NCBI GenBank assembly: GCA_964544545.1
Contig: CAZJCG010000001.1
Coordinates: forward strand, 38,073 to 102,072
Length of the DNA: 64,000 nucleotides
Origin: an uncultured Lentimicrobiaceae bacterium
Lineage (GTDB): Bacteria; Bacteroidota; Bacteroidia; Bacteroidales; UBA4417
Direction of reading: 5' to 3'
The number at the start of each line of letters is the position of its first letter. Within the stretch, counting starts at the first letter, position 1. The position numbers and the translations under genes were made by a program. Shown here one piece after another: positions 41,916 to 59,822 of this stretch. Below the pieces are notes generated by a model. The model was not told the origin of the DNA. It saw nothing but the letters and a program-made list of their open reading frames with translations, and did no database searches.

Positions 41916-42237
41916 AGGATTGGGTTTAAGGTCCAAAAGGTTAATATGGACTAAACAATTGAAGTTGGGCATCTGTTCATCAGTCGGTCAGAGCGCCTGA
42001 ATGCAGCAGAAAACTCCGGGAATTCCATAACTGCATAAGCCGGCGGAACACTATTGGGAATTTATCCTTTACCCCGCCAGGCGCCATTCGCAATCCATGT
42101 CCGGCTCTTTCGCATCCTGAATCCGTATTCCCCGGACATTTCATCCGTAGTTGCAACAGACTGTAAGGATAATGGATGATGATTGTCGGCCGCATATCAG
42201 GTTTCCGGTCCCGTAACCTTAGCAACCCTCTTTTTCC

Positions 42238-42245
42238 CTATTTTT
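42238..42245 (+). promoter_or_regulatory. candidate -7 promoter element for the sulfotransferase-flippase module
   Basis: tatttttg matches TAnnTTTG 48 nt upstream of the ATG at 42293. No clear -33 element. Confidence 0.3.
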
Positions 42246-42292
42246 GCCTGACCCTGCACACACCGTACAGGGAGTATATCCATTCATTCCCT

Positions 42293-43354
42293 ATGCCCGC
42301 CCAAACCGTCAGTCAGCAGGTAGCCAACATTCCCGTATTCTTCATCCTCGGTCGCCCGCGTTCAGGAACCACCCTGTTGCGAACCCTGTTCGACGCCCAC
42401 CCGAACGTTGCCACCCCGGTGGAATGTGCCTTTATCATCAACATGAGGCAGAAATATGCCGGTATCACACACTGGTCCAAAGAACTGCTGCTCGAGTTCC
42501 ATGAGGATGTACAGAAGCATATCAAGTTCGATACCTGGAACATTGACCTCGACAGGATGAAGGCCGATTTGCAGGATTGCGCAGGAGAGAACACTTTCCA
42601 GAACATCTGCAAGGTGGTGTATTTCGATTACATCTCCCTCTTCCCGAAAGAGGAGATCAAGTGGATCGGGGATAAGAATCCGGTATATGCCACCTATACC
42701 CCCGAACTGTTGAAGCTCTTCCCCGATTCCAAATTCATACATCTCGTCAGGGATCCAAGGGATAATATCATATCGCTCAAGAACGTCGACTTTGAGGGAC
42801 CGTTTACCGCATTGCTGGCCTATCGCTGGGTTCATTCCGCACGAAAGCTCTTCCACATCAAGAAAAAGTATCCGGGAAAGTTCTATACGATCCGTTATGA
42901 GGATCTGGTTACGGAGCCTCAGCGCTATTATCGTGAAATGTGCGATTTTCTCTCGATCCCTTACAACGATATCGTTTTCGATTTTTATAAGAAGCAGGGT
43001 GAGGCAATGCAGAAATTCAACATCGAAAAGATGATGAAGTATCACAAAAGCCTGTTCTCACCTATCAATAACTCGAAAGTAAATCTCTGGAAAACGCAGC
43101 TCCCTGACCGGGATATCAGGATCACCGAATTTGTTGCCGGCAAATGGACCCGCAAGTACGGATACGAGCGGAAATACCGTCATGCCGGATTGAAAGCTGT
43201 CGTTGTTTCAATTCCCTGGCTCATCTATGGCCGTTCCCTGTACCTTCTGCGCGATTTCATCGACCTTTTCCCGTTTAAACTGAAGATCGCCATCAAGAAC
43301 AGGGGTCCAGTCCTGGCCCGCACTTTTGTGAAACTAAGGAATCCCGACTCCTGA
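42293..43354 (+). CDS. sulfotransferase family protein (paralog 1) with a hydrophobic C-terminal tail
   Basis: PAPS 5'-phosphosulfate loop GRPRSGTT and 3'-phosphate motif HLVRDPRDNIIS. ATG at 42293 preferred over the extended ORF. C-terminal LKAVVVSIPWLIYGRSLYLL segment. Confidence 0.8.
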   Translation: MPAQTVSQQVANIPVFFILGRPRSGTTLLRTLFDAHPNVATPVECAFIINMRQKYAGITHWSKELLLEFHEDVQKHIKFDTWNIDLDRMKADLQDCAGENTFQNICKVVYFDYISLFPKEEIKWIGDKNPVYATYTPELLKLFPDSKFIHLVRDPRDNIISLKNVDFEGPFTALLAYRWVHSARKLFHIKKKYPGKFYTIRYEDLVTEPQRYYREMCDFLSIPYNDIVFDFYKKQGEAMQKFNIEKMMKYHKSLFSPINNSKVNLWKTQLPDRDIRITEFVAGKWTRKYGYERKYRHAGLKAVVVSIPWLIYGRSLYLLRDFIDLFPFKLKIAIKNRGPVLARTFVKLRNPDS

Positions 43355-43366
43355 TCATTCGAAACC

Positions 43367-44671
43367 ATGGCGCCGCGGAGTTTTCTGAAGGATATCAGCA
43401 GTGTGTTCGGCAGCAATCTGCTGGCTCTCACCAATGCTTTTCTGGTGGATGTAATCCTTTCGCGGCAACTGGGGCCTGAAGGACGCGGGTTATATATGTC
43501 CATCCTTGTGGTTCCGCTCATCGTGGTGAGTTTCGCCCTGCTAGGAATACGCCGTTCAGCCGTTTTCCATCTGGGGAAAAAGACATTCGACGAAAACAGG
43601 ACCGTTTCAGGGGTTCTCATCCTGCTGATCATCACCAGCGCACTGGCCGTTATCATCAGCGGGATTGCCCTGCTCATCACTAAACCCGAAGGCCTCACGG
43701 CACCCATGGCGATCCTTGCATTGCTCACCATCCCGGTAAAGCTGATCCTGGTTTACTCCGGAGGCATCTATATCGGGAAGGAAGAGTTCCGGCGGTCGAA
43801 CCTGCAGGTGTGGGTTCCGCAGTTCCTCAACCTCATTGGTATCATAGCCTTTGTTTGGATAGTTCGCTGGTATGTCCCCGGGGCTCTGCTGGCATTGTTA
43901 CTGGCTAACCTTGCTGTAGCCATCATATCACTGAATTACCTCAGCCGGAATTATACCATCCGGATCCGGCTCGACAGCGAAGTGATCGGAAGCCTGGCGC
44001 GTATGGGGATTGTTTACGCCCTGGCGGTCGTCATCATGCAACTGAATTACCGGGTTGATATCCTCCTGCTGCAGAAACTATCAACGCTCAAAGAAGTCGG
44101 GTACTATTCGCTGGGAGTGGCCATCAGCGATAAACTCTGGCAACTGCCATCCGCAATCGGACTGGTGGTAATGAGCCGCAGCGCCAACACCAACGACGAA
44201 TACCGGCTGAACAGGGATGTGGCCCGGCTGCTGAGATTATCATTCCTTCTGGTGCTGGCCGTCGCTGTGATCCTCTGGCTGATAATCCCATGGCTGCTGC
44301 CTCTCATTTTCGGCAGCCGTTTTACCCCCAGTGTTGCCATCGTGCAGTGGATGTTGCCGGGTATCCTGATGTTCGTGATCGTTCGCATACTCAGCGGAAG
44401 ATTTGCAGGACAGGGACAACCTTTGACACTCATCTCCATCTTCGTTCCTGCCCTGATCCTGAACATCCTCCTCAATTTCCTCTGGATCCCCTCACATGGT
44501 GGCATTGGCGCCGCCTGGGCCAGTAACGTGAGTTATACGGCAGGCGCCCTAGCCCTGCTCCTGGTCTACTCCGTCAAAATGCAAATCCCGATGTACGAGA
44601 TTGTCCGTTATCGTAAAAGCGATTTCGACTTCATCGCCAACTTCCTTAAGCGCAGGAGGAAACAGTCATGA
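43367..44671 (+). CDS. Wzx-like oligosaccharide/polysaccharide flippase (MOP superfamily)
   Basis: 434 aa and polytopic (12 or more hydrophobic segments). The N-terminal region SSVFGSNLLALTNAFLVDVILSRQLGPEGRGLY is typical of polysaccharide biosynthesis flippases. ATGA overlap with the next gene. Confidence 0.8.
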   Translation: MAPRSFLKDISSVFGSNLLALTNAFLVDVILSRQLGPEGRGLYMSILVVPLIVVSFALLGIRRSAVFHLGKKTFDENRTVSGVLILLIITSALAVIISGIALLITKPEGLTAPMAILALLTIPVKLILVYSGGIYIGKEEFRRSNLQVWVPQFLNLIGIIAFVWIVRWYVPGALLALLLANLAVAIISLNYLSRNYTIRIRLDSEVIGSLARMGIVYALAVVIMQLNYRVDILLLQKLSTLKEVGYYSLGVAISDKLWQLPSAIGLVVMSRSANTNDEYRLNRDVARLLRLSFLLVLAVAVILWLIIPWLLPLIFGSRFTPSVAIVQWMLPGILMFVIVRILSGRFAGQGQPLTLISIFVPALILNILLNFLWIPSHGGIGAAWASNVSYTAGALALLLVYSVKMQIPMYEIVRYRKSDFDFIANFLKRRRKQS

Positions 44672-45735
44672 CAGGAGAGGAGTTAAAAAGGATTGAACAA
44701 ACTCCGATGTTCTTCATCGTCGGAAGGCCCCGCACAGGCTCAACCCTTCTGCGAATGCTGTTCGATGCGCATCCCAACGTGGTCATTCCACAGGAGTGGC
44801 CGATGCTGATGGCCCTGTACCACCAGTTTGGGAATGTGAAAAAATGGGACGCCCCGACGCTCAACCGCTTCTATGATGCACTATTCCAAAAACTACGCAT
44901 CTCCTACTGGGAAATTCAAAACTGGCCGGAATTTGATGCCCGACGGCTGAAAGAATCGATCCTGGCATGCGAAGGGGAACATACCTTCGAAACGCTCTTC
45001 AAGGTAGTTTACAGCAGCTACCATTCTTATTTCGATAAAAAAGAGATCCTCCTGTTCGGAGATAAAAATCCGGTGTATTCCAATCAGGCAGATCAGCTTG
45101 CGAAGCTTTTCCCTACTGCAAAATTCATCCACCTGATCCGCGATTACCGCGACAACATTGTTTCGATGCTGGACGTGGATTTTGAAATGCCCAACACTAC
45201 ACTGCTGGCCTATCGGTGGAAGTATTCGATCGATACGATCAACCGGACGGCTGCCAGTTTCCCTGAGCGTTTTGTTACTCTCCGGTATGAAGACCTGGTT
45301 GCCGACCCTCAATCCCGCTTCGCCGAACTTTGTCATTTCCTTGAAATCCCGGAAGCCCCGTCGATTTTTGAATTTCAAGCCCGGAAAGAGGAATTGGAAG
45401 CTCATGTGCCGAAAGAACTGATAGATCGCTACTTTAAGAACCTGTTTAAACCGATCGACGCTTCCCGCGTAGGACTCTATAAAAACCGACTGAGCAGCAG
45501 GCAGATCCGCATAGCAGAACTTGTCGCCGGCAAAACTGGCAAAAATGCAGGCTATATTACGGCAAACACGCAATTCAGTCCGTTGCTGCGCCTCTGGACG
45601 TTCCCGGCAATTATATATGCAAAGTGGCTGTATTCCGTGGGTTGGCTGGTCTCCCTACTGCCTTACAGATGGATGATGTGGCTGTTGAATAAGCCTTCAG
45701 TGCTGGTGAAGATGTATACGAAACTGAAGAGGTAA
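44668..45735 (+). CDS. sulfotransferase family protein (paralog 2) with a hydrophobic C-terminal tail
   Basis: GRPRTGST and HLIRDYRDNIVS motifs. Alignable to paralog 1 through FFI[LV]GRPR, GDKNPVY, KFIHL, LLAYRW and RYEDLV. C-terminal LWTFPAIIYAKWLYSVGWLVSLL. Confidence 0.8.
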   Translation: MTGEELKRIEQTPMFFIVGRPRTGSTLLRMLFDAHPNVVIPQEWPMLMALYHQFGNVKKWDAPTLNRFYDALFQKLRISYWEIQNWPEFDARRLKESILACEGEHTFETLFKVVYSSYHSYFDKKEILLFGDKNPVYSNQADQLAKLFPTAKFIHLIRDYRDNIVSMLDVDFEMPNTTLLAYRWKYSIDTINRTAASFPERFVTLRYEDLVADPQSRFAELCHFLEIPEAPSIFEFQARKEELEAHVPKELIDRYFKNLFKPIDASRVGLYKNRLSSRQIRIAELVAGKTGKNAGYITANTQFSPLLRLWTFPAIIYAKWLYSVGWLVSLLPYRWMMWLLNKPSVLVKMYTKLKR

Positions 45736-46481: not shown

Positions 46482-47366
46482 TTAATTATTCCGGATGACC
46501 GCCTTATCTGAATAGATGGTCTTATTCTCCTTTGACAATGCTACCATGGTATCGAACAATTCCTGAGAGTGTGCAACAAAGAAACGATTCCCTCTGATTC
46601 TGAAGTTTTCACAAACAGACTTGTTCACATATTTATTCATGAAAGCTGTTATGTCATTATTCTTTATCTGCGGATGCGCTACCAGCGTTTTGACAATTTT
46701 TACGGAACCGTCCGGCATTTTCACTTTTGCATCATATACCTTATCTAACCTCGTTTTTATCGGGAACTTGCTTTTCAGGACATCTTCCGGGCAATGAACA
46801 AAAGAAATGAAGTTGGTATCTACGCCAATCCCGATTATTATTCCCTTATACTTCATTATTTTATAATAGGGACTTGATTCATCGCAGGGATATATGGATT
46901 CCCCGTGCCCGCCGACAATATCACCGGCATTTCGTCCGATGGCCACAATCGAATTGATCGGATGTATACTTCTTACTGCAGTGGGATATCTTCTGGCAAT
47001 TTCTGAAAGCAGGCCTAACACCGAAGGTGATCGCTTTACATCAAAAACAAGGTCTTTCGCAAGATAATCCTCTGCCCTGGATGTGATATGCCAGGCAGGA
47101 AACACCAATGTACCGCTATCTCCGACACTTTCGAGCAGGATTTCGAACAACCGGTAAACAGAAAACTGAATGTTTAAAGCATCTATGGAGCTATGAATAA
47201 ATAATACAGATCCTTCGCGAACCCCTATCCGGTCGTGGAGAATGTCCCTGAAATCCTGTTCTGATAATGGCTTGTATATCTTTTTTAAAATCCGCCTGTA
47301 CACTGTTCTTAATGAAATGAAAACGTCGACAGGCAGAATCTGGAAGATTAATTTTTTTATCCCCAT
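46482..47366 (-). CDS. AAC(3)-family N-acyltransferase-like protein
   Basis: SVLFIHSSIDAL....LLESVGDSGTLVFPAW matches the N-terminal signature of aminoglycoside 3-N-acetyltransferase-fold proteins. Last gene of a tightly packed five-gene operon. Confidence 0.6.
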   Translation of the reverse strand: MGIKKLIFQILPVDVFISLRTVYRRILKKIYKPLSEQDFRDILHDRIGVREGSVLFIHSSIDALNIQFSVYRLFEILLESVGDSGTLVFPAWHITSRAEDYLAKDLVFDVKRSPSVLGLLSEIARRYPTAVRSIHPINSIVAIGRNAGDIVGGHGESIYPCDESSPYYKIMKYKGIIIGIGVDTNFISFVHCPEDVLKSKFPIKTRLDKVYDAKVKMPDGSVKIVKTLVAHPQIKNNDITAFMNKYVNKSVCENFRIRGNRFFVAHSQELFDTMVALSKENKTIYSDKAVIRNN

Positions 47367-47367
47367 A

Positions 47368-48417
47368 TCACTCTATTTGCATTTCCTGAGCTAGTTTACT
47401 GAAGGTAGTGAATTCAGCTTCCGGATATTTTTGACGAACTCTTTTCACAAACGACTCCATCAAGCTGAATGAATAATCACCCATACTTTTGGGATGCCCG
47501 CTTATGCTGAATATGGCTGTTTCCTGGTTTATGTACTTCCTGACATTATAGTCCAGGTTCTTCATCAGATAATCTATTGAAAGCGTATAGTTATCAAATG
47601 ATAGCATGCGGGACGAAAACATCATTTTAATTTTGGATTTCAGATCTGTCGGATTGCCTTCGTGAATCTGATATCCGTGATCCCTGGGGCCTTGTGCCGC
47701 CAGTTTCTTTAATTTAAACCGCGTCGGGACTTCAAACGGTGTTTTGGGAATACTTGCAATGGGCACCTCAAGGATTCCCTTCTCTGCTTCTTTTCGGATA
47801 TCTCCGTCCGGACCAATAAACCAGTTTGGCTTTGGCGGCATGTTGAGACAATTAATTTCCGAAAGCCCCGAACGGAAATAATATCCTTTAATGATCGAGC
47901 TGTCAAAACGGATCCCATACCTGTAAAGCGAGGAGAATATTGCTTCAGCGGCATCTTCAATATTATATCCTCCGGCACGGAATGCCAGGCACCGGTAATT
48001 ATGATCTGCAACAGCACAGACTTCATACAAAAAATCGACTCCGGCCTTGATTATTCCATCGATCGTAAAAGGCTTCCCGGTTGAAAAATCCGCCAGACGA
48101 TAATCCTTTGAAGGAACAAAGGTGCTGTCGTTGTAAGAGGATGTCAGCCAATGGGGATGTAAATGCAACTGTACGTCATGATGGCTTCCGGCAGCATCCT
48201 GTAATTGCCTGACATAGGGTTCATAAAATGAACTTTTATCCCATTCTTTAAAACGGATGCCACAGAGCACATCCGTAAATAATACTACAGGCAATTCAAG
48301 TTTTTCAGCCAGATCCAACAATCTGTATGTCGGATCAAACATGGCCTCCTGATACGAAGTCCGGACACCACCTAAAGGCAGTTCATGATCAAATGTCAGT
48401 AATATTTTAAGCTTCAT
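47368..48417 (-). CDS. polysaccharide deacetylase-like / hypothetical hydrolase
   Basis: N-terminal KILLTFDHE plus later His-rich motifs (HHDVQLHLHPHW) resemble metal-dependent carbohydrate esterase/deacetylase-superfamily proteins. The assignment is tentative. Confidence 0.4.
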   Translation of the reverse strand: MKLKILLTFDHELPLGGVRTSYQEAMFDPTYRLLDLAEKLELPVVLFTDVLCGIRFKEWDKSSFYEPYVRQLQDAAGSHHDVQLHLHPHWLTSSYNDSTFVPSKDYRLADFSTGKPFTIDGIIKAGVDFLYEVCAVADHNYRCLAFRAGGYNIEDAAEAIFSSLYRYGIRFDSSIIKGYYFRSGLSEINCLNMPPKPNWFIGPDGDIRKEAEKGILEVPIASIPKTPFEVPTRFKLKKLAAQGPRDHGYQIHEGNPTDLKSKIKMMFSSRMLSFDNYTLSIDYLMKNLDYNVRKYINQETAIFSISGHPKSMGDYSFSLMESFVKRVRQKYPEAEFTTFSKLAQEMQIE

Positions 48418-48665
48418 TACAGAGTGGTGTCGTTGGTTTTCTTTTCAACCAGGCTGATCATATCGCCCACCGTAGCAATGCCTGCAAGATCTTTAAATCC
48501 AAATTCAATTGAAAAATGGCTTTCAATGGCGGCGATCAGCCTGACATGATTTAATGAATCCCATCCTTCTACTGTCAGGGGAGAATCAGAGGACTTAAGT
48601 TTAAGATTAGGTCGTTCAAGAGTATCAGCAAAAATTCTGTTTATCTCAGATAAAATATTTTCCAT
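48417..48665 (-). CDS. acyl/aminoacyl carrier protein
   Basis: About 82 aa with the phosphopantetheine attachment motif GWDSLNHVRLI. ATG at 48665 preferred over TTG at 48671. Confidence 0.8.
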   Translation of the reverse strand: MENILSEINRIFADTLERPNLKLKSSDSPLTVEGWDSLNHVRLIAAIESHFSIEFGFKDLAGIATVGDMISLVEKKTNDTTL

Positions 48666-48667
48666 GT

Positions 48668-49333
48668 TCAAGCTATTGATTTCTGCATTTTGATCCGGGT
48701 TAAGCCCGGCAGGTATTTCAGAACTTCAGTGTTTTCAGTGGACCTTTCCTCAACAATTGTAAATCCGAGTTTTGTCTGACTTAAAACAGCAGCCTGATTT
48801 TGTTTAAAAAGCTGCACCTGAGCTTTGCTGATGGCCGGATATTTCATTTTTGCCGAGCTGATAAGGGCATCCGTTAATAAACCCACAATACCTCTCCCCC
48901 TGTATCCTTCCCTTACATAGGTGGTTTCCAGTTGAAGGGTCATGTGGTCCCTTTTTATGCCGACTTCATCCACTACCGAAGCTATCGAGTGATAATGTTC
49001 AATTTGCCTTTTGTCAAGGAATGCCTTGAAGGCACTCATTTTTAACAACCCCGACGGCATACCTCCGATTCCTTCAATCCACCCGGTATATGCAGCAACA
49101 GGATTTCCGCCAAGTTCGGCAATTTTAAAATTTCTAAAACTAAACTCAAAATCAGGAATATCTTCTTTGAATATTTTTCTCATCAGCGAAGCAAACTCAT
49201 TTTCCGTGATGTCAAATATGGCGCAATAGCTTACAATATTCCCATTCCCCTTTTCAGCATTTATGATTGCTTCAATAAGGAAATCTGAATCCTTTACGGT
49301 TGCATCCCTGATTACAAATTCACTGGTCATCAT
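48668..49333 (-). CDS. GNAT family acyltransferase
   Basis: Acyl-CoA-binding-type motif REGYRGRGIVGLL. About 221 aa. ATG at 49333. Confidence 0.7.
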   Translation of the reverse strand: MMTSEFVIRDATVKDSDFLIEAIINAEKGNGNIVSYCAIFDITENEFASLMRKIFKEDIPDFEFSFRNFKIAELGGNPVAAYTGWIEGIGGMPSGLLKMSAFKAFLDKRQIEHYHSIASVVDEVGIKRDHMTLQLETTYVREGYRGRGIVGLLTDALISSAKMKYPAISKAQVQLFKQNQAAVLSQTKLGFTIVEERSTENTEVLKYLPGLTRIKMQKSIA

Positions 49334-49339
49334 TTTCAA

Positions 49340-50857
49340 CTAAAGCATTTGCTTATCCATAGCCAACAAGGCCTTCCTGTCAATTTTCCCGTTGAGATTG
49401 TACGGCAGGCTATCTATAAAAATAAATCGTTTCGGAAGCATATATTCAGGAATTCTGGCCCTGAGCAGTTCTGTGATAACAGGTCCCTCATAATGAACTT
49501 CTGCAACCAGAAACAACAGTATCTGCAGCTCTTCTGATTCCCCGGTTGCAACGGCAACAGCATCTTTGATCCCGGCAATCCGGTTGGCAGCATCTTCTAT
49601 TTCGCCGAGTTCAATTCGGTAGCCACTGATTTTAACCTGTGTATCATTTCTCCCTAAATAGAAATAGTCGCGCTCCTGATCGACCAAACAGATATCGCCG
49701 GTACGGTAAAAAGTTGATTTGTTGTAATTGATGAATGATTGCTTATTCCGGTTCTCATCATTCAGGTAACCCGAAGTCAACTGCCTGCCCTGAATGCAAA
49801 GCTCTCCTTCCGGATTATTGTCGATGGTTAACTTATCATCACGCATCAATGCAAAGCCGGTCCCAAGGAAGGGTTTCCCTATACAAACCACTCCGTTAAC
49901 ATCTTTAATATCACTTTTCGGACAACGGTAATATGAACAGAAGATCGTTGCTTCGGTTGGTCCGTAAACGTTAAGTATGTCAGCATTTGGCACACATTGC
50001 TGCCAGTTGCTCACCAGTTTGGTCCGTAAGGCTTCACCACAAAACAACCAGTACCGCACATCGGGGAGCCGGATCTTTTTAAAATAAGGTTCCAGATAAC
50101 TGACAAAAGAGGGAACGGTGAGTGTATGCGTTATGGCCTTCTCTTCAATTACGCTTATGGCAGCTGTAAATTTAAACGGGACCCGTGGTAAGGTGTAAAC
50201 ACATGCACCTTTCAGCAACGGGATAAGATAGGAAAATACCGAAAGATCGAAAGTGAGATCGAATACCTGGAGGAACCGGTCTTCCTGATCAATCCTGATA
50301 CCCATCCGATCGATATTCTGGACAAACGCCTGCAGATTCTCTGTAGTGATAGGCACACCCTTAGGAACCCCGGTTGTGCCTGAGGTAAATAGAATATATG
50401 CCGGATTATCGGTTAATCCGACAACAGCATCTGTTGTTAACTCCTTTTCAACCGGATCGGCAAGTAGCTTGTCACCATGTTTCTCTAAAAATTCCCGGTG
50501 CAGCATACCGGCATCCGAACAATAGATTGAACCTAAGCTTAATGCATTGATAATATGACTGTTCCGTTCGTCCGGGTGGGATGGCTCAATAGGAATGTAA
50601 GTGATACCGCTAAGTAAACAGGCAACAATAGCTGAATATGTATCAAAATCGTTGTTGGCAATTATTCCCAATGATTCAATCCTGGTGTTTTGATTCCGGA
50701 ATAAGGACTGGAACAGGGCCACCCGCTTAAGCAGCTGATCATAGGTAAAGCAGGCATCATTAATACAGAATGCATTCCTGTGAGCATGGGTTTTTAAGGA
50801 ATTAAGTAAATCCTGCTGTAATACTCCTTTCCCCTCAGAAATGCTTTTACTGACCAT
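49340..50857 (-). CDS. DltA-like stand-alone adenylation enzyme (ANL superfamily)
   Basis: Adenylation core motifs FTSGTTGVPKG, FDLSV, NVYGPTEAT, YRTGD, GRNDTQVKISGYRIELGEIE, NGKIDRK. The 505-aa size and motif spacing match D-alanine-carrier-protein-ligase-type enzymes. Confidence 0.85.
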   Translation of the reverse strand: MVSKSISEGKGVLQQDLLNSLKTHAHRNAFCINDACFTYDQLLKRVALFQSLFRNQNTRIESLGIIANNDFDTYSAIVACLLSGITYIPIEPSHPDERNSHIINALSLGSIYCSDAGMLHREFLEKHGDKLLADPVEKELTTDAVVGLTDNPAYILFTSGTTGVPKGVPITTENLQAFVQNIDRMGIRIDQEDRFLQVFDLTFDLSVFSYLIPLLKGACVYTLPRVPFKFTAAISVIEEKAITHTLTVPSFVSYLEPYFKKIRLPDVRYWLFCGEALRTKLVSNWQQCVPNADILNVYGPTEATIFCSYYRCPKSDIKDVNGVVCIGKPFLGTGFALMRDDKLTIDNNPEGELCIQGRQLTSGYLNDENRNKQSFINYNKSTFYRTGDICLVDQERDYFYLGRNDTQVKISGYRIELGEIEDAANRIAGIKDAVAVATGESEELQILLFLVAEVHYEGPVITELLRARIPEYMLPKRFIFIDSLPYNLNGKIDRKALLAMDKQML

Positions 50858-52891: not shown

Positions 52892-54223
52892 TTACTCCTT
52901 GATTATTTTATTAATGAATACATGCCCTGAGGAGTCTACTATTTTCAGTAAATAGATCCCAGGATTTATCAATGGTGTTAAAATAATATTATTTAATCCA
53001 ATACTTATATTTTCTTTATAATTATAGCATACAGTCCCATCCATAGTCATAATATTAATTAAAACATCCTGAGAGTTTGAACTATTCAATGAAAACCTGA
53101 ATTGATCTTTAAATGGATTTGGTGTGACTTTAATCTGATTTATTGTTTGATTAAAGTCGATTAAGGAGGTATTCGGAAAGTTAGAAATTTTCAGAATAAA
53201 GCTGTAAGCGAACGCATAACCTGTTGAATCGAAAAATTGGAAATCATGAATCCAATCGGTTAGGTCATCTGTTGCATAAGAAGAATCATAATTAATGAAA
53301 GTAGCTCCTCCATCAACACTTTTATAGATATTGGCAGGCCATCCACTTAACCATATAGTGGAATCATTCTCATAATAGATAGCGTCAGGTAGTAGTTCCC
53401 ATTTATTTTTATAAAAGTGAGAAATTGTGTCGAAATTATTTTCTGTTAACATTACTATGGCATAGTGCCAGTCTCCACCAGTAGTACCACCATGTAAACT
53501 GTCGGCAAAATGTATGTTGTATAAATCTCCTGTCAGCGGTTTACATTCAATCCAATGAGCTCCACCGTCTATTGTTTTTAAAACAAATCCTTGATCCAGG
53601 GACATCGAGCAAGTTGCCCAGCCATATTGTTCATTTATAAATATAATCTTGTTTGGTTTATAATTATTTGATGATGCTGAATCGATGAATTCAGGTGTCA
53701 GTGTTTTTACCCAACTAATACCTCCATCCTCTGTTTTGAATATTGATTTGAACCCGCCACAAAAACCGACATCTTTATTGAAAAAGTAAAAACCTGAACT
53801 GCCATAGAAGGGCCCTCCGGGGGTGAACATTACAGAATCAGTCAGATCAACCCAATTATGACCACCATCATTTGTTGACCAAAAATAAAGATCAGAATTT
53901 GTATAATTTTCAATCAATGCAAAGCCGTTCAACGAATCAACCAGTTGTATATTATCAGCACGATACCCAAGAGGGAAATCATAAACTTTATTGAATGAGA
54001 TAGCTCCATCCGTCGTCTGAATCAAATCATATTGGATGTCTGGCCAAATTCCTGAACGAGAACAGATCCAACCTTCCTTATCATTAATAAAGGAAGCCGA
54101 TATAAAATAATCGTATCCTGCTGGATTGACCTTTTCCCATGTTTGTGCTCTTGTCAACTTTGGAGAGCATATAAAAAGTAAACTCAGTAGGGTAAATTCC
54201 AATATGAAAATTTGTCTATTCAT
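52892..54223 (-). CDS. T9SS C-terminal-sorting-domain protein with a BNR/Asp-box beta-propeller
   Basis: Signal peptide. Asp-box motifs TNDGGHNW, TEDGGISW, TIDGGAHW, SVDGGATF. C-terminal VTPNPFKDQFRFSL...LLKIVDSSGHVFINKIIKE sorting domain. Very AT-rich. Confidence 0.7.
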   Translation of the reverse strand: MNRQIFILEFTLLSLLFICSPKLTRAQTWEKVNPAGYDYFISASFINDKEGWICSRSGIWPDIQYDLIQTTDGAISFNKVYDFPLGYRADNIQLVDSLNGFALIENYTNSDLYFWSTNDGGHNWVDLTDSVMFTPGGPFYGSSGFYFFNKDVGFCGGFKSIFKTEDGGISWVKTLTPEFIDSASSNNYKPNKIIFINEQYGWATCSMSLDQGFVLKTIDGGAHWIECKPLTGDLYNIHFADSLHGGTTGGDWHYAIVMLTENNFDTISHFYKNKWELLPDAIYYENDSTIWLSGWPANIYKSVDGGATFINYDSSYATDDLTDWIHDFQFFDSTGYAFAYSFILKISNFPNTSLIDFNQTINQIKVTPNPFKDQFRFSLNSSNSQDVLINIMTMDGTVCYNYKENISIGLNNIILTPLINPGIYLLKIVDSSGHVFINKIIKE

Positions 54224-54334: not shown

Positions 54335-55012
54335 CTACCGGTACAACCGCTTCCCCTCTTCGGTCATCACGGAGTTCATGATGATCCCTGCCGACTGAAA
54401 GTAGGCTTCGATCTGCTGTGCCAATCCGCTCTCGTAATCCGCCGGCTCCAGTATCAGATAGCCCTCGCCCGACTCCTGGTCATGGAACGTCCTGGCCGCC
54501 CTCCTTATGTTTTTACTCTTCTTTTCGAAGTTATCCCGTGTGAGAAAATAAAGCTGGTTTTCCTCTTCATCCTGCCCGTCGCATAATTCATATCCGATCT
54601 GCTGCGCATAACCTATCGCCGCAAAATTGTCGCGCATTACATGAATGTAGGAAATATGCCAGTCGAGATAGTAGAAACCCACCTCCAGCAATACCAGCGA
54701 AGTTAAAATCGGAATAAAAGTACTGATATAGTCCTGGTCCCAGAAAAACAATCCCGACTCACTGGTCCGGGCCTTCCAGTCCATATTCTTATCGTTGATA
54801 AGTGCGACTTTTTTACCCTGATACTCAACTATATAATAGAAGTTCTCAAAATTATCGATACGCTCGAACCATTTCACCTGCATCCCGGGGGTGATCTCTT
54901 CCCGGAAATTCATCACCCGCCGGATCTCTTCCGAGTTCCTTTTCTGACGCACCAGCTCAATATCGTCCCTCGTCAGACGCCTCAAGGTCAGCCCGTATTT
55001 TCGAACAATCAT
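54335..55012 (-). CDS. GNAT-like N-acyltransferase
   Basis: 225 aa. N-terminal LRRLTRDDIELVRQKRN and overall layout resemble GNAT acetyltransferases found in glycan loci. ATGA overlap with the upstream GT2 gene. Confidence 0.55.
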   Translation of the reverse strand: MIVRKYGLTLRRLTRDDIELVRQKRNSEEIRRVMNFREEITPGMQVKWFERIDNFENFYYIVEYQGKKVALINDKNMDWKARTSESGLFFWDQDYISTFIPILTSLVLLEVGFYYLDWHISYIHVMRDNFAAIGYAQQIGYELCDGQDEEENQLYFLTRDNFEKKSKNIRRAARTFHDQESGEGYLILEPADYESGLAQQIEAYFQSAGIIMNSVMTEEGKRLYR

Positions 55013-55932
55013 TTAAGAATCTTTTTTATGGAATAAGGAGGCTTCTTGTTCTGGACCTTGTAAATCCTGGTAAGGTATTCACCGATCATGCCCAGGCATA
55101 ACATGATGATGCTGGTGGAAAACAGTATGGCAACGATCAGCGAGGTATACCCAAGGGGAACATCATGGATGAGCTTGTTGATGATGAACCGGATCGCAAG
55201 GATGAAGCTGAGCACCGACAGGATAAAACCGCCATAGGTCATGATGCGCAGCGGGACTGCCGTATAGAAGACCACAATATTGAACGACATCTTCATCAGT
55301 TTCCAGGTGGAATACCCCGAATGACTGACGCTCCGTTTATGATGCGTCACCTCCACAAACGAGATATTACCTGTGTACCATAACAGCAGTTCATCAATGT
55401 ACATGAAATGCTGAGTGTGTTTGAGAATACTTTTTGCCAGTTCGCGGGTCATCAGTCTGAAAGAGGAACCCTGTCCGGGGGATTGCAATAGCAGGCGGGA
55501 TGATTTTTTTATAAAGAAACTGCCAAAATTCCGGATCCAGGAATGTTGCTTCTTACCGTAGTAGCCATATACGAGATCGGCATCCGTTGTGTTGAAGGAG
55601 TCGATGAGTTTCGTGATTTCTTCCGGCAGAACCTGGAGATCATCATCGATGGTGATAATGGTTTCTCCCTGTGAATGTTCCAGTCCGCAAAATACGGCAT
55701 TATGCTGACCGAAATTCTTCGAAAGCTTGATAGCAACGACCTCTTCGGGATTTAGTTCCTTAAGGTGAATCAGAATCTCCCAGCTCTTATCCCTGCTGAA
55801 ATCATCCACAAAAACCATCTCGAACGTTTTTCCCAGCGAGGCGAAAACAGCCTTTGTCCTGGAAAAAAGTTCTTCCAGCGTTCCCTCGCTGTTGTAAACA
55901 GGAACAACAATGCTGTAATCAGGTGAAGTCAA
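55009..55932 (-). CDS. family 2 glycosyltransferase, polyprenyl-phosphate glycosyltransferase type (ArnC/GtrB-like)
   Basis: YSIVVPVYN, VFVDDFSRD and TIDDDLQ (DxD) motifs, plus two C-terminal TM helices. 307 aa. Only a TTG start is available. Confidence 0.85.
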   Translation of the reverse strand: MTSPDYSIVVPVYNSEGTLEELFSRTKAVFASLGKTFEMVFVDDFSRDKSWEILIHLKELNPEEVVAIKLSKNFGQHNAVFCGLEHSQGETIITIDDDLQVLPEEITKLIDSFNTTDADLVYGYYGKKQHSWIRNFGSFFIKKSSRLLLQSPGQGSSFRLMTRELAKSILKHTQHFMYIDELLLWYTGNISFVEVTHHKRSVSHSGYSTWKLMKMSFNIVVFYTAVPLRIMTYGGFILSVLSFILAIRFIINKLIHDVPLGYTSLIVAILFSTSIIMLCLGMIGEYLTRIYKVQNKKPPYSIKKILK

Positions 55933-56232
55933 TTTCTCTGTGTTTAATAATTAGTTTACTAACTCTTAATGAGGGAAAACGATACTACAAAGGTTGAAAT
56001 TGCAGGGGGATAAATCAAGTCCTCCAGTTGAAAAGCCGTTGAAATTGTCCGAATGCTTACTGCCATCATTGAGAATTTTTAGGCATTCCGAACCGGCCGG
56101 AAATTTTTCCCTGATCTCTTCTTCTTTCCGGCGAGTTTCCAACCCGTCAGCATCCAAATCCCGAATCCTGTTTCTGAGATCCGGCAGGTAATTTACGGGG
56201 ATTCTCTGTTGTCAAAGGATCGTAGATTATAC

Positions 56233-56967
56233 TTATCCTCCTCCCAGTTGCAGGTTTGTGCCTGTGATCCACTTTGCTGCGTCCGACAAGAGGTAAACTA
56301 TTGCGTTAGCCACATCGTCCGGTTCCCCGAAACCCAGCGGCATCATCTTTTCAAATTTTTCAAGCACCTCATTCGAAATGGTCTCGGCGGCGCCTTCCAC
56401 CATCGGGGTCTTCACAAACGAGGGTGACACGCAGTTCGACCGGATGCCCTTTGGAGCCAGTTCCAGGGCCAGCACCTTGGAATATGCCTCTATAGCCGCT
56501 TTCGTGCTGCAATACAAGGCTCCTCCGAAATAGGGATAGCGGGTGGCAATCGACGACAGGAACACTACCGAAGCGTGGCTCTTTAGTTTTTTCTTTTTCA
56601 GGATGGCTGCCGTTGTGAGAACAGGTGCAGTGTAATTCGTTGCGAAGAAAGGAACAATATCATCCTCCCGTAGGAATTTTACAGGCAGGTGCCCGGTGAT
56701 CCCGGCAGAATGAACGATACCATCCAGACCGGGGAGCAATTCGACGAGGCGGTCACGGTCTTCCTGAAGTGTAAGATCGGCGGGAATCATTATATGTCCC
56801 AGCTGATCGAGTGATTCAAGGGTTTGCTGTAAACGTTGTTCGTTGCGCCCGGTAATGACCAGGGTGCCTCCGGCCTTGCTTACAGCAATAGCGGTTTGTT
56901 TTCCGATTCCGGAAGAAGCTCCTGTCACCAGGATCGTCTTGCCATGCAACAGAAAAGTACTTTCCAC
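56233..56967 (-). CDS. short-chain dehydrogenase/reductase (FabG-like ketoreductase)
   Basis: TGASSGIG cofactor motif and the YCSTK catalytic YxxxK. GTG start. Confidence 0.85.
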   Translation of the reverse strand: MESTFLLHGKTILVTGASSGIGKQTAIAVSKAGGTLVITGRNEQRLQQTLESLDQLGHIMIPADLTLQEDRDRLVELLPGLDGIVHSAGITGHLPVKFLREDDIVPFFATNYTAPVLTTAAILKKKKLKSHASVVFLSSIATRYPYFGGALYCSTKAAIEAYSKVLALELAPKGIRSNCVSPSFVKTPMVEGAAETISNEVLEKFEKMMPLGFGEPDDVANAIVYLLSDAAKWITGTNLQLGGG

Positions 56968-56988
56968 GGAAGAAATTTTAGAAATGGA

Positions 56989-58044
56989 TTAATAGTCGAC
57001 CAAAGGCGGGCAAACCACCCTGTCGACCTCCATGGCGACGCTGCCCCACGACAATCCGACTCCGAATCCGCAGGTCAGCAGCTTTACCTTTTCCCTGCTG
57101 ATCCGTTCCCCGAGTTCCGTTACAATGGTCAGCGGAATGGAGGCAGAACTGGTATTGCCGAACTTATGAATGGAATAGGGAACTTTTTCCTTATCCAGCT
57201 TGAGCATCTTACGAATGGTCTCGTTCATCAGCAGGTTAGCCTGATGAAATACGAAATGGTCGAAATCGGCGGTCGTCACCGACAATTCCCCCATCAGTTT
57301 TTTAATGTTCGGCACCACCTCACGCAGGGCGAAGTTGAACACCTCTATGCCGTTCAGGGCTATCTGCAGGCGGTTCCGGTAGATGCCATCGCCGTATTTC
57401 CGGGTGTCGAACGACTTTTTGCTGATGAAGTTCCGCATGCCGCCATCCGGTATGATGATCGCATCGTAGCCGGCGCCGTCCGATTCAAGGTTAAAATGGA
57501 TGGGACTGGCAGATTCATCCAGCTCGAAGGCAGTGGCGGTCGCGGCATCTCCGAATAGCGGAAAAGTGCTTTTATCGCGATAGGAGGCCGTAAGGGTCGA
57601 AATATCTCCCACCAGCAACAGTCCTTTCCTGATCTTGCCTGCATACATCATGCTGGCAATAGCCGAAATGCCGTACACCCATCCCGAACAACCCAGACCG
57701 ATATCATAGGCTACACAACTGTGCGGCAGCCCCAGCCGGTCCTGGATAATACCCGAGGTGGAAGGTATGATGTAATCGCGCGACTGGCTGATAAAGATCA
57801 GCAACTGAATCTCATTCTTATCCCATCCCAGTTCCCGGATAAGTCTTTCGGCAGCAGCAACGCAGAGGTCTGAGGTGGCGGTACCGGGTTCGGCAACCCT
57901 GCGTTTCTCAACTCCCACAGTCTTGACGAGCATTTCCCGATCTTTCCTGGAAATCCACTTGTAATCGAGATTGGAGTACTCTTTCCTGGGGGCGGCAGCG
58001 GCAATGCCGGCCATCCGGACGTGGGGAACGGAGAAAACAGCCAT
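56989..58044 (-). CDS. ketoacyl-ACP synthase III (FabH-like)
   Basis: Cys-His-Asn triad contexts GLGCSGWVYG, FVFHQAN and FGNTSSASIP. 351 aa. Starts 4 nt after the ACP gene. Confidence 0.85.
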   Translation of the reverse strand: MAVFSVPHVRMAGIAAAAPRKEYSNLDYKWISRKDREMLVKTVGVEKRRVAEPGTATSDLCVAAAERLIRELGWDKNEIQLLIFISQSRDYIIPSTSGIIQDRLGLPHSCVAYDIGLGCSGWVYGISAIASMMYAGKIRKGLLLVGDISTLTASYRDKSTFPLFGDAATATAFELDESASPIHFNLESDGAGYDAIIIPDGGMRNFISKKSFDTRKYGDGIYRNRLQIALNGIEVFNFALREVVPNIKKLMGELSVTTADFDHFVFHQANLLMNETIRKMLKLDKEKVPYSIHKFGNTSSASIPLTIVTELGERISREKVKLLTCGFGVGLSWGSVAMEVDRVVCPPLVDY

Positions 58045-58048
58045 GGGC

Positions 58049-58279
58049 TTACACCTTTGATTTGACTATTTCAAACAGGTCGGTAACAGTCTTTGATTTC
58101 TGTATGTCTTCAGCATTGATGGCGGCACCGTATTCGGTCTTAACCATTGCAATAAGGATCAGGGCATTGATACTATTCCAATCGAATACTTCACGAAAAT
58201 TGGTTTCAGGTTTCAGTTTCCCGGGTTCAATGTCATCAAATTCAGTCTCGATATTCTTGATGAAATCTTCAAGTGTCAT
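58049..58279 (-). CDS. acyl carrier protein (variant attachment motif)
   Basis: About 76 aa from the ATG at 58279 (MTLEDFIKNIE...). Four-helix ACP-like layout. The attachment site reads FDWNSINALI (Ser retained, Asp replaced by Asn). Confidence 0.7.
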   Translation of the reverse strand: MTLEDFIKNIETEFDDIEPGKLKPETNFREVFDWNSINALILIAMVKTEYGAAINAEDIQKSKTVTDLFEIVKSKV

Positions 58280-58311
58280 GGTAACCAGTTTATTAGTACA
58301 AGGAAGAATCG

Positions 58312-58319
58312 CAAATGTA
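58312..58319 (-). promoter_or_regulatory. candidate -7 promoter element for the ACP-KASIII-SDR operon
   Basis: The minus strand reads tacatttg (TAnnTTTG) 33 nt upstream of the ATG at 58279. A TTTG lies at 58344-58347 (minus strand), 24 nt further upstream. Confidence 0.3.
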
Positions 58320-58416
58320 AACAAATTTGGTAGAATGACTTTTCAAAATGAGAATAATCCTGAGGCAACCTCCTCGATTCATTTTTCTATCTTTAGCGGC
58401 TGGAAAGGAAAGGATC

Positions 58417-59796
58417 ATGCCTGAACGAAAAAGAAAACTGTTGCTGATCAACCCGATAAGTCCGGAGAACCGCGGATTTGTCATCAACCAGGGTCAGCGT
58501 TATCCCCCACTCGGGCTTGGGATCGTTGCAGCGCTTACCCCGGATCACTGGGAGGTTGAACTTATCGATGAAGTATTCACCCCTTACCAGTACCGGGATA
58601 ATCTCATTGAAGCGGATCTGGTTGGCTTCGGAGCATTCACCTTTTCGGTAAACAGGGCCTATGAAATAGCGGCAGCCTACCGGAAAAGGGGCATACCTAC
58701 CGTGTTGGGCGGCATTCATGCCAGTATGGTCCCGGAAGAAGCCGGACAATACGTGGATACCATCGTGGTAGGTGAGGCAGAAACCGTCTGGCCAAAACTG
58801 ATCGCCGACTTTGAGGCAGGCCGGATGAACGACCTGTATGAGGGAGGATTGGCAGACCCCGCAACCATACCTCAACCCCGCTTCGACCTCTTTCATCCGG
58901 GTTACTGGTTTGCCTCCATCCAGACTACCCGCGGTTGTCCAATGAACTGCACCTTCTGCTCCGTAACCACATTCAACGGAAAACAACACCGGCTGAGACC
59001 GGTGAACGATGTGCTGGATGAAATCGAGAAGTGCGGAAGGAAGATGATCTTCTTTGTCGATGATAACATCATCGGCTACGGCAGGGAAGCCCGCGACCAT
59101 GCACTGGCCATCTTCCGTGGCATGAAAGAGCGGAAACTGAACAAGGTATGGTTCTCGCAGGCTTCACTCAATTTCGCCGATGATCCGGAAATACTGAAAG
59201 CAGCCAGCGATGCCGGATGCAGACTGATCCTCCTCGGGATCGAGTCGGAGCATGCCGAACAACTGAAACTGGCCAATAAAAAGCTGAACCTGAAGAAGCT
59301 GGACAGTTATAAGGACATATACCGTAAAATCCACAGGCACAGCATTTCGGTACTGGGAACTTTCATCTTCGGACTTGAAGGCGACACTCCGCAGAATATC
59401 ACTGAACGGGCTGCCTATATGGTGCACTCGGGCGTTGATGCGTACCAGGCATCCATCCTCACTCCGTTACCAGGAACATCATTATATGATTCGTTCATGG
59501 CATCCGGAAGGATAACAGACCGTAACTATCCGCAGGATTGGGACAAGTACCAGTTTACCAGAGTAGTCTTTCATCCGGGATCCATGCGGCACGACGAACT
59601 TACCGAAGAGGTCAGGCGGGCATGGCACAATATTTATCAACAACATACGATGTACCGGAAGGCTATCAGGACCTTCTGGGCATTGCGAAGATGGAACCTC
59701 CGCCAGTGGTTCACACGGGGCGTGGAGGCAACCATGTTCGCCTATTATACCAACTGGCACTATAAGAATGTCGTGATCGGAAAGAAAGAGAAATAG
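58417..59796 (+). CDS. B12-binding-domain radical SAM protein (class B), paralog 1
   Basis: ATG at 58417 gives MPERKRKLLLINP. N-terminal Rossmann-like cobalamin-domain pattern (YPPLGLGIVAALTP...ADLVGFGAFT). CxxxCxxC cluster TTRGCPMNCTFC. Confidence 0.85.
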   Translation: MPERKRKLLLINPISPENRGFVINQGQRYPPLGLGIVAALTPDHWEVELIDEVFTPYQYRDNLIEADLVGFGAFTFSVNRAYEIAAAYRKRGIPTVLGGIHASMVPEEAGQYVDTIVVGEAETVWPKLIADFEAGRMNDLYEGGLADPATIPQPRFDLFHPGYWFASIQTTRGCPMNCTFCSVTTFNGKQHRLRPVNDVLDEIEKCGRKMIFFVDDNIIGYGREARDHALAIFRGMKERKLNKVWFSQASLNFADDPEILKAASDAGCRLILLGIESEHAEQLKLANKKLNLKKLDSYKDIYRKIHRHSISVLGTFIFGLEGDTPQNITERAAYMVHSGVDAYQASILTPLPGTSLYDSFMASGRITDRNYPQDWDKYQFTRVVFHPGSMRHDELTEEVRRAWHNIYQQHTMYRKAIRTFWALRRWNLRQWFTRGVEATMFAYYTNWHYKNVVIGKKEK

Positions 59797-59822
59797 CGCC
59801 TGAGACCTGAAAATTATTGTCG

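Follow-up and report, generated by a model that had tools for sequence, protein, structure and literature searches.

To which acceptor is an amino acid passed when it is activated by a stand-alone adenylation enzyme and loaded onto a small carrier protein, in an operon that also encodes a GNAT, a deacetylase-like protein and a protein of the AAC(3) fold? The question is raised by five minus-strand open reading frames (ORFs), found by ORF calling in a 64,000-nt stretch of an uncultured Lentimicrobiaceae bacterium (contig CAZJCG010000001.1). The whole stretch is referred to here as the window; the operon is packed into its positions 46482-50857, on the minus strand, and its parts are listed below in gene order, followed by the region upstream.

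49340..50857, minus strand: stand-alone adenylation enzyme (adenylase), 505 aa
48668..49339, minus strand: single-domain GNAT, 223 aa from TTG; an ATG two codons in gives 221 aa
48417..48671, minus strand: carrier protein, 84 aa from TTG, 82 aa from the ATG at 48665
47368..48417, minus strand: X349, a 349-aa protein
46482..47366, minus strand: AAC(3)-fold (Antibiotic_NAT) N-acyltransferase, 294 aa
50858..51211, minus strand: upstream intergenic region, presumed operon promoter region, 354 nt

We lean towards the view that the operon is a self-contained cytoplasmic cassette for swapping the N-acyl group of a surface-glycan amino sugar. X349, a putative divergent CE4-fold metal hydrolase, would de-N-acetylate an N-acetyl amino sugar linked to a nucleotide or a lipid, and the adenylase would charge the dedicated carrier protein with a small activated amino acid, for which D-alanine drawn from the peptidoglycan pool is the likeliest candidate. 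The AAC(3)-fold enzyme, accepting a phosphopantetheinyl thioester in place of acetyl-CoA, would then move the carrier-bound aminoacyl group to the freed sugar amine via its conserved His/Glu dyad; the GNAT would acetylate the alpha-amine of the alanyl group, before it leaves the carrier protein or once it has been transferred. The predicted product is an N-(N-acetyl-D-alanyl) amino sugar. Amino sugars of this kind occur in O-antigens (PMC3210612), and deacetylation followed by aminoacylation is the logic of the Wbp/Vim pathway of Bacteroidota (PMC7468200). Gene content, folds, motif conservation, synteny and co-occurrence were computed here; the substrates, the reaction order and the glycan itself are all proposals. 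An earlier reading of the same DNA, made from the sequence only, had put forward a cytoplasmic acylation or aminoacylation route for a surface glycan and not a resistance gene, a proposal which the folds, the synteny and the polysaccharide loci described below support.

Core pair and donor modules

Synteny was analysed in 81 loci, i.e. 80 distinct retrieved loci and the window. In 66 of them the genes for X349 and the AAC(3)-like protein lie side by side, the hosts being Bacteroidales, Paludibacter, Tannerella, Lentimicrobium, Chitinophagaceae and Saprospiraceae. The five-gene order as a whole is also conserved, occurring in eight of the 81 loci (the window and seven others) and in further metagenomic contigs, at 45-65% protein identity. 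The following donor modules were distinguished:

17 loci: FkbH domain protein (TIGR01686, 296 bits), carrier protein and VOC/epimerase-like protein
10 loci: carrier protein, FabG-like SDR and acyl-CoA-ligase-like ANL enzyme
8 loci: adenylation domain (A-domain), GNAT and carrier protein (type A, that of the window)
8 loci: A-domain, carrier protein, a different GNAT and a VimE-like deacetylase (type D)
4 loci: KASIII, acyl carrier protein (ACP) and SDR

X349 and the AAC(3)-like protein are thus the constant core, and the adenylase, GNAT and carrier protein of the window form one of at least five exchangeable donor modules. The FkbH, SDR/ligase and KASIII modules (types B, C and E) include a carrier protein, but no GNAT and no amine. 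Of the 66 loci with the pair, 46 encode a carrier protein at a distance of no more than 6 kb; of the 15 X349 loci without an AAC(3)-like gene, none does (Fisher test over loci taken as independent, p=4e-7). The latter include Planctomycetota, Eremiobacterota, Nitrospinota, Nitrospirota, Alphaproteobacteria and several short Bacteroidota contigs; where flanking DNA is available, X349 lies mostly beside GT4, WecB and DegT genes. Across many of the loci the frequent neighbours are GT4, GT2, Wzx, WecB, TviC-like and DegT genes.

In the neighbour-joining tree built for X349, the protein of the window clusters with type-B and type-C loci, apart from the clade formed by the other type-A loci from the GTDB scan; this argues for an exchange of donor modules against the core pair. 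As a cassette the five genes are portable and not bound to one fixed glycan locus.

Related polysaccharide loci

In Pseudoalteromonas sp. THAF3 (NZ_CP045419.1, 116-122 kb) the AAC(3)/X349 pair lies inside a vps-like exopolysaccharide cluster, the X349 homologue being 29% identical to that of the window. The pair is followed there by genes for a PaaK/F390-synthetase-like ligase, a GT4 and an aspartate-semialdehyde-dehydrogenase-like protein, with no carrier protein annotated, which suggests yet another donor chemistry.

The capsule locus of Segatella copri DSM 18205 contains glycosyltransferases, an A-domain (37.6% identical to the window adenylase), an acyl carrier protein, an AAC(3)-family protein and an alanine racemase. 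The set of A-domain, carrier protein, AAC(3)-like protein and racemase recurs in gut metagenome contigs, beside genes of the 6-deoxyhexosamine type, and without the racemase in Marinifilum flexuosum. None of these loci has a GNAT or X349, so that the AAC(3)-like protein is the only transferase candidate in them. The alanine racemase of the S. copri-type loci points to D-alanine as the substrate. A tblastn search of a plasmid collection with the S. copri AAC(3)-like protein returned only the query itself, and no Prevotella intermedia match.

The S. copri-type loci also encode an unannotated protein downstream of the AAC(3)-like gene, of 356-361 aa, or of 276 aa and just after the racemase gene in S. 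copri. None of the four has a Pfam match:

L084, 16081-16911: unannotated protein
L088, 7968-9038: unannotated protein
L090, 7969-9054: unannotated protein
L091, 7952-9028: unannotated protein

This protein may be the counterpart partner of that cassette type. It was considered as a diverged X349, but there was no hidden Markov model match (L088, L090, L091) and no BLASTP match (the 276-aa S. copri protein), and it is a separate unannotated family.

Two further sets of loci contain genes of the Vim type. In type-D loci (L017, L021, L023 and L032) a DUF7033 protein matches NF053580, the model for UDP-2,3-diacetamido-2,3-dideoxyglucuronate deacetylase (VimE), with E=1.6e-46 (e.g. L023, 11083-12390, minus strand). 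Its gene (c17) shares an operon with the A-domain, carrier protein, GNAT and AAC(3)-like genes, and X349 lies divergently beside it. In the Paludibacter loci L033, L038 and L039, FemAB-like and GT4 genes adjoin the pair, an arrangement reminiscent of vimA/vimF.

AAC(3)-fold protein

The AAC(3)-like protein belongs to the PF02522 Antibiotic_NAT fold family (E=8e-31; 107.8 bits versus a cut-off of 25). Its motif SFVHCPE fits the catalytic motif of the family, Tx(phi)H(phi)AE (PMC8956665), and conservation of H191 and E194 across 66 homologues is 95% or higher. It is far from the resistance enzymes: the best equivalog score is 56.7 bits versus a cut-off of 270 (NF033082), the cut-offs of the other models being 420-675, and identity to solved family members is at most 28-30%, over partial alignments. 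The family also includes FrbF, YokD and BA2930, which are without aminoglycoside activity (PMC8956665). The sequence-only reading had held that the gene is no unrelated resistance determinant, and its place beside X349 in 66 of 81 loci, among them polysaccharide loci, bears this out along with the low score.

Since it is the sole candidate common to all donor types, and the sole one in the S. copri set, the comparative evidence favours the AAC(3)-like enzyme over the GNAT as the carrier-protein-dependent transferase. The earlier proposal that the GNAT and/or the AAC(3)-like enzyme passes the acyl group to an amino sugar is accordingly retained for the latter, the GNAT being the less likely of the two.

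Campylobacter Cj1298 was considered as an AAC(3)-like sugar N-acetyltransferase beside FkbH and ACP genes and set aside; the literature lists it as LegH (PMC3438082), and it is not among the PDB sequence matches to the AAC(3)-like protein. A full-text search, incomplete in its coverage of subscription journals, found no paper in which AAC(3) or Antibiotic_NAT proteins are linked to carrier proteins in glycan loci.

X349, a deacetylase-fold family

X349 has no Pfam or NCBIfam match at E<=0.01 and no PDB sequence match, and so lies outside PF01522-type families at the sequence level. Its AlphaFold model (pLDDT 92) is a (beta/alpha)7 barrel of the polysaccharide deacetylase (CE4) type. The best Foldseek match is the peptidoglycan deacetylase HP0310 (3qbu; probability 1.00, E=1.6e-8, TM 0.50/0.59), and further matches are the Mycobacterium smegmatis deacetylase 3rxz, ArnD (8t0j) and PuuE (3cl6). 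The earlier description of the protein as deacetylase-like therefore holds for the fold, and fails for a sequence-family match.

The invariant residues D10-H11-E12 (TFDHE), D81, H85/H87/H89 (HLHPHW), R147 and H308 are at plausible positions for CE4 motifs 1, 2, 3 and 5, as placed from the sequence. The N-terminus forms the first strand of the barrel, and there is therefore no signal peptide. From the model we infer that X349 is probably a cytoplasmic de-N-acetylase which exposes the acceptor amine. A homology with VimE was considered and rejected, X349 not matching NF053580 and hhalign against VimE-like proteins giving a probability of 1%.

The family has more than 1,000 matches in a 90%-identity protein collection, or 1,275 clusters at 50% identity (E<=1e-10), and occurs in at least 551 places in GTDB species genomes. 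X349 is a new deacetylase-fold family, comprising about 1,300 protein clusters without family assignment.

Adenylation enzyme and carrier protein

The adenylase matches PF00501 AMP-binding (E=2.7e-56) and AMP-binding_C, and scores 302.5 bits with the amino-acid adenylation model TIGR01733, just below the cut-off of 317.4. The sequence-only reading had reported all ANL core motifs in this 505-aa protein, and TSGTTGVPKG, NVYGPTE, YRTGD, GRNDTQVKISGYRIELGEIE and NGKIDRK can indeed be read in the translation. The characters of a nonribosomal peptide synthetase (NRPS)-type A domain are present, i.e. motifs A3, A5, A7, A8 and A10 and the anchor residues D235 and K517. Position D235 and the other pocket positions were assigned by alignment to solved DltA (PDB sequences 3e7w and 3dhv), and K517 was read in NGKIDRK of the translation. 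Retention of D235 and K517 implies an alpha-amino acid substrate, and these residues, the DltA-like pocket and the TIGR01733 score identify the enzyme as an amino-acid adenylation domain, not a fatty-acyl ligase, in agreement with the earlier assignment.

The best PDB sequence matches are NRPS A domains and DltA. The scores with the DltA equivalog models are below threshold (TIGR01734, 266.9 bits versus 559.85; NF003417, 285.2 versus 476). A glycine-type A domain, indicated by linear gramicidin synthetase as the best PDB match (321 bits), was rejected: two A-domain matches (126 and 193 bits) add up to it, and per domain the match scores the same as DltA. The pocket codes are:

DLFLLCVIF (plus K517): window adenylase and all type-A orthologues, identical
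DLMTMCTVA: DltA 3e7w
DLMTLCTVA: DltA 3dhv
DLQLMCLVA and DLHFLCIIG: type-D enzymes
DFSQICMVF: two racemase-linked enzymes
DIFPIAMVY: Marinifilum enzyme, without racemase

The window adenylase has D235, L236, L299 and C301 in common with 3dhv, and D235, L236 and C301 with 3e7w. Cysteine 301, in the structural literature the L-alanine-excluding residue of DltA, tracks racemase linkage; it is present in both racemase-linked A domains, and the racemase-less Marinifilum homologue has Ala. The bulky hydrophobic lining of the pocket suits a side chain of very small size, and D-alanine is the predicted substrate. We propose with moderate confidence that the adenylase loads D-alanine onto the carrier protein, glycine, L-alanine or another small amino acid being the alternatives.

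The carrier protein matches PF00550 PP-binding (E=4.9e-8), has its phosphopantetheine serine in GWDSLNH, and is conserved at 50-53% identity across type-A loci. In NCBIfam it matches generic ACP models only, all below cut-off, and no DltC model.

GNAT

The GNAT is seen weakly by sequence, with Pfam scores of 17-18 bits (best 17.7 versus a cut-off of 20.7). Its AlphaFold model (pLDDT 82) nevertheless matches many GNAT acetyltransferases with Foldseek probability 1.00, which upholds the GNAT call of the sequence-only reading. The top matches are RimI and phosphinothricin, arylalkylamine and N-terminal acetyltransferases, including Naa60, with E down to 6e-10; these nearest structures acetylate the alpha-amines of amino acids or protein N-termini. 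A conserved stretch has the form R147-x-x-G150. Two unrelated GNAT families (c9 and c13) are confined to donor modules that contain an amino-acid adenylation domain. The GNAT is probably an acetyl-CoA-dependent alpha-amine N-acetyltransferase that caps the alanyl alpha-amine.

Alternative explanations

Several observations weigh against an N-acyl swap cassette. We know of no AAC(3)-fold enzyme with an acyl carrier protein as donor. Of the ten pocket positions behind the D-alanine prediction only five are common to DltA, and the role given to C301 in D-selectivity is taken over from the DltA literature. The CE4 assignment of X349 comes from a predicted structure with moderate TM-scores (0.5-0.6), and sequence comparison did not connect the protein with CE4 or VimE-like proteins (hhalign probability 1%). 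Twenty of the 66 pair loci have no carrier protein within 6 kb, some but not all of these being short contigs, and the loci that the Fisher test treats as independent have a shared phylogeny. Several type-A loci, e.g. L001, have no glycan gene within 10 kb. Finally, the known members of the Antibiotic_NAT fold use acetyl-CoA (PMC8956665).

The use of acetyl-CoA by all characterised Antibiotic_NAT enzymes (PMC8956665) would suit an operon with the two transferase roles swapped, the GNAT moving alanine from the carrier to the deacetylated sugar and the AAC(3)-like enzyme, whose catalytic dyad is intact, acetylating the alanyl alpha-amine. GNAT-fold enzymes are able to use acyl-ACP or aminoacyl-tRNA (N-acyl amino acid synthases, the Fem family and VimA; PMC7468200 and general knowledge). 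We consider such a swap unlikely, as donor types B, C and E combine a carrier and an AAC(3)-like protein but lack both a GNAT and any amine that could be acetylated, a GNAT is likewise absent from the S. copri-type loci with their A-domain, carrier and AAC(3)-like protein, and the operon GNAT, small and single-domain, is structurally closest to acetyl-CoA N-acetyltransferases and not to Fem-type enzymes. The variable-donor synteny also weighs against a butirosin-like sequence of protection, transfer and deprotection, in which the GNAT would protect the alanyl-S-carrier, the AAC(3)-like enzyme would transfer the N-acetyl-alanyl group to a pre-existing sugar amine, and X349 would deprotect it. 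The product, a free N-alanyl sugar, could be a T9SS (type IX secretion system) linking sugar. Genes for T9SS cargo are present in the window (PF18962), the linking sugar of Prevotella intermedia, a species without VimA and VimE, is an N-alanyl deoxyhexose (PMC11969387), butirosin synthesis uses a carrier-bound, transiently protected amino acid (general knowledge), and type-D loci carry two deacetylase-like genes, X349 and the VimE-like one. X349 however pairs equally with the amine-less, GNAT-less FkbH, SDR/ligase and KASIII modules, and its role is therefore independent of the donor; in Planctomycetota, Eremiobacterota and Nitrospinota it also occurs beside GT4/WecB with neither AAC(3)-like protein nor carrier. 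This scheme, we believe, has only a small chance of being correct.

The remaining alternatives are those against which the folds and the genomic contexts weigh. The acceptor might be no glycan at all, but a lipid head group, a polyamine or a small diffusible metabolite, the operon being a minimal NRPS-like natural-product cluster. Several type-A loci without glycan genes within 10 kb are in keeping with this, as are the arginine decarboxylase, agmatinase, C25 peptidase and YitT genes that flank L001 and the OsmC and AlkD genes next to the operon in the window. It is quite improbable in view of the match of the X349 fold to sugar de-N-acetylases, the presence of the pair, or of the A-domain/carrier/AAC(3)-like triad, inside polysaccharide loci (Pseudoalteromonas, S. 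copri, Marinifilum, Paludibacter and others), and the GT2, Wzx, sulfotransferase and acyltransferase genes within 1-10 kb in the window. A Dlt-like O-esterification, in which D-alanine is joined to hydroxyls of a polymer (capsular or similar to teichoic acid) and the AAC(3)-like protein does the work of both DltB and DltD, would account for the DltA-like pocket and for the S. copri and L088 loci, where the triad is joined with glycerophosphotransferase genes and alanine racemase. It too is very improbable: no MBOAT or DltD was found in the window ORFs scanned, all five proteins lack signal peptides, which places the reaction in the cytoplasm, an acceptor amine is suggested by the obligatory pairing with a protein of the de-N-acetylase fold, and the AAC(3) family performs N-acylation (PMC8956665). 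That the AAC(3)-like protein, with its PF02522 match and conserved catalytic dyad, is an aminoglycoside resistance enzyme beside unrelated genes is scarcely credible given scores of at most 57 bits versus AAC(3) equivalog cut-offs of 270-675, at most 28-30% identity to solved family members over partial alignments, strict synteny with X349 and carrier-protein modules across phyla, and relatives such as FrbF, YokD and BA2930 that lack aminoglycoside activity (PMC8956665).

Operon layout and base composition

From adenylase to AAC(3)-like gene, the first two genes abut with 0 nt between them, the next two junctions overlap by 4 nt and 1 nt, and the last leaves a gap of 1 nt; if the ATG start of the carrier protein is used, the GNAT/carrier junction is a 2-nt gap instead of the 4-nt overlap. 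The tight packing of five minus-strand genes that had been reported for this DNA is thus real (junctions of -4 to +1 nt, or +2), and the order adenylase, GNAT, carrier, deacetylase-like and AAC(3)-like protein is borne out by domain searches and the AlphaFold folds. The upstream gap of 354 nt is the only sizeable one on that side, and the downstream gap is 171 nt. A sigma-70-type scan gave 18 promoter-like sites versus 15.7 expected, which does not exceed chance, Bacteroidota promoters being outside its scope, and a terminator scan, uninformative for Bacteroidota, gave 10 sites versus 5.4 expected and none at the 3′-end of the operon.

The G+C content is 42.3% for the operon and 47.4% for the whole window, a dip of 1.7 standard deviations (standard deviation of same-length segments 3.1%; 9% of these reach such a value or fall below it). 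Values of 49-54% are seen in the sulfotransferase, Wzx and radical SAM genes on the flanks, and the low-G+C stretch extends past the operon via AlkD (42%) and a gene with a T9SS tail (34%) to approximately 56 kb. Of the contrast estimated earlier, about 40% versus about 55% in the flanks, the direction is therefore right; its size is about half of that stated, and it is not specific to the operon. Horizontal transfer was considered on the strength of G+C content and rejected, a dip of 1.7 standard deviations that reaches beyond the operon being poor evidence when taken alone. The incongruence between donor modules and the tree of the core pair is a better argument for mobility.

Neighbouring genes

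The immediate neighbours of the operon in the window are OsmC and AlkD genes (Pfam), and a Pfam scan of the window placed GT2, Wzx, sulfotransferase and acyltransferase genes within 1-10 kb of it. A second carrier-protein module lies on the same strand, at 54335-58324 (minus strand):

58049-58324, minus strand: ACP (PF00550, E=2e-5)
56989-58044, minus strand: KASIII/FabH
56233-56967, minus strand: FabG-like SDR
55009-55932, minus strand: ArnC/PgfS-like GT2 polyprenyl-phosphate glycosyltransferase
54335-55012, minus strand: PseH-like GNAT

In loci L039 and L041, KASIII/ACP/KASIII/SDR genes directly follow the X349/AAC(3)-like pair, which makes the second module of the window a possible additional donor for that pair.

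Two sulfotransferases, with a Wzx-like flippase between them, are encoded at 42176-45735 (plus strand; PF13469, PF13440), which suggests that a sulfated surface glycan is made near the operon. At 58348-62393 (plus strand), divergent from the ACP/FabH module, a pair of neighbouring genes for B12-binding radical SAM proteins precedes an Acyl_transf_3 membrane acyltransferase gene. At 52892-54223 (minus strand), inside the low-G+C stretch of the operon, is the gene for a BNR/Sortilin-like protein with a T9SS C-terminal sorting domain, whose 34% G+C is the lowest in the window. By its T9SS sorting domains and by all of its nearest relatives the DNA belongs to the Bacteroidota, order Bacteroidales. 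A full-length serpin (PF00079, E=1e-111) is encoded at 34523-35890 (minus strand), beside an ECF sigma factor; serpins are uncommon in bacteria.

Significance

Surface glycans (O-antigens, capsules and protein-linked glycans) bear N-acetyl-alanyl, alanyl, glyceroyl and hydroxybutyryl groups, and the enzymes that install them are mostly unknown; the pair of deacetylase-fold and AAC(3)-fold proteins with modular carrier donors provides concrete candidates. The pathway by which P. intermedia attaches alanine to its deoxyhexose linking sugar "is unknown" (PMC11969387), and in Tannerella forsythia the gene for the N-glyceroyl group of pseudaminic acid "remains elusive" (PMC6120980). We hypothesize that the A-domain and FkbH versions of the cassette are candidates for these two modifications.

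A more general version can be offered tentatively, namely that the AAC(3)-fold proteins of this clade are N-acyltransferases dependent on a carrier protein and, with X349, make up a universal plug-and-play cassette behind many exotic N-acyl groups of surface glycans. Its donor modules would on this account provide D-alanyl groups, glyceroyl groups via FkbH, and hydroxyacyl groups via the ligase/SDR or KASIII modules. If true, it would name the missing enzymes for N-alanyl sugars such as the P. intermedia linking sugar, for the N-acetyl-D-alanyl sugars of O-antigens, and possibly for the N-glyceroyl group of T. forsythia pseudaminic acid. It would also suggest that the clinical AAC(3) resistance enzymes descend from glycan amino-sugar N-acyltransferases, and a carrier protein as donor would be a new activity for the Antibiotic_NAT fold. 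Annotation pipelines label such genes "AAC(3) family N-acetyltransferase, response to antibiotic", which inflates resistome counts.

Comparison with known systems

Like the AAC(3) enzymes and FrbF (PMC8956665), the operon enzyme has the fold and the His/Glu motif, and its proposed acceptor is a sugar-like amine. It differs in scoring far under the resistance cut-offs, in being embedded in glycan/carrier-protein operons, and in its putative donor, an acyl or aminoacyl carrier protein in place of acetyl-CoA, which would be new for the fold.

The resemblance to butirosin synthesis by BtrI/BtrJ/BtrH/BtrG (general knowledge) lies in a carrier-tethered amino acid that is destined for an amino-sugar-type amine and modified at its amino group on the carrier. 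BtrH, however, is of a different family (none of the five operon proteins has a Pfam match to BtrH_N), the loader BtrJ is an ATP-grasp enzyme, and butirosin is a secondary metabolite and no glycan of the cell surface. In mycothiol synthesis by MshB, MshC and MshD (general knowledge), GlcNAc is deacetylated, an amino acid is ligated to the amine, and a GNAT then N-acetylates the attached amino acid, three steps of exactly the kind proposed here; the families differ throughout (an LmbE-type deacetylase, a Cys-tRNA-synthetase-like ligase), there is no carrier, and the product is a soluble thiol.

With DltA and DltC of Firmicutes the operon shares a stand-alone adenylase with a small dedicated carrier, and the pocket residues D235, L236, L299, C301 and K517 of 3dhv. 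Unlike the Dlt system it has no DltB or DltD, as the sequence-only reading had already observed: no MBOAT/DltB or DltD domain match was found in the approximately 49 window ORFs scanned, which include every large non-overlapping ORF, and there is no MBOAT among the annotated recurrent neighbour clusters of the 81 loci. The DltA equivalog scores are below cut-off, the carrier is not DltC-like, and transfer is predicted to take place in the cytoplasm, to an amine and not a hydroxyl, by an AAC(3)-fold enzyme.

De-N-acetylation of an amino sugar followed by re-N-acylation from an acyl carrier protein is also the course taken by NodB/NodA/NodF for Nod factors and by LpxC/LpxD for lipid A (general knowledge). 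The Nod enzymes include a CE4 deacetylase, NodB, and a dedicated ACP, NodF. The acyltransferase folds are different (NodA; the left-handed beta-helix of LpxD), and the Nod and Lpx donors are fatty acyl groups, whereas those of the operon type would be amino acids or short hydroxy acids from swappable modules.

The Wbp/Vim pathway of Porphyromonas gingivalis and T. forsythia, with the deacetylase VimE, the aminoacyl transferase VimA and the GT4 VimF, makes the T9SS linking sugar (PMC7468200). It belongs to the same phylum, and comprises CE4-type N-deacetylation of a nucleotide amino sugar and then attachment of an amide-linked amino acid, Ser/Gly in the case of Vim (PMC7468200); in some loci, VimE-like (DUF7033) and FemAB-like/GT4 genes are found beside the X349/AAC(3)-like pair. 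The differences are that X349 is not detectably related to VimE-like proteins, that the operon would supply its amino acid by means of an adenylase and a carrier, VimA being a FemAB-family enzyme whose donor is not established, and that the transferase has the AAC(3) and not the FemAB/GNAT fold, the additional GNAT probably capping the amine. The operon works most like the Wbp/Vim pathway and also resembles NodB/NodA/NodF, and is a member of neither family.

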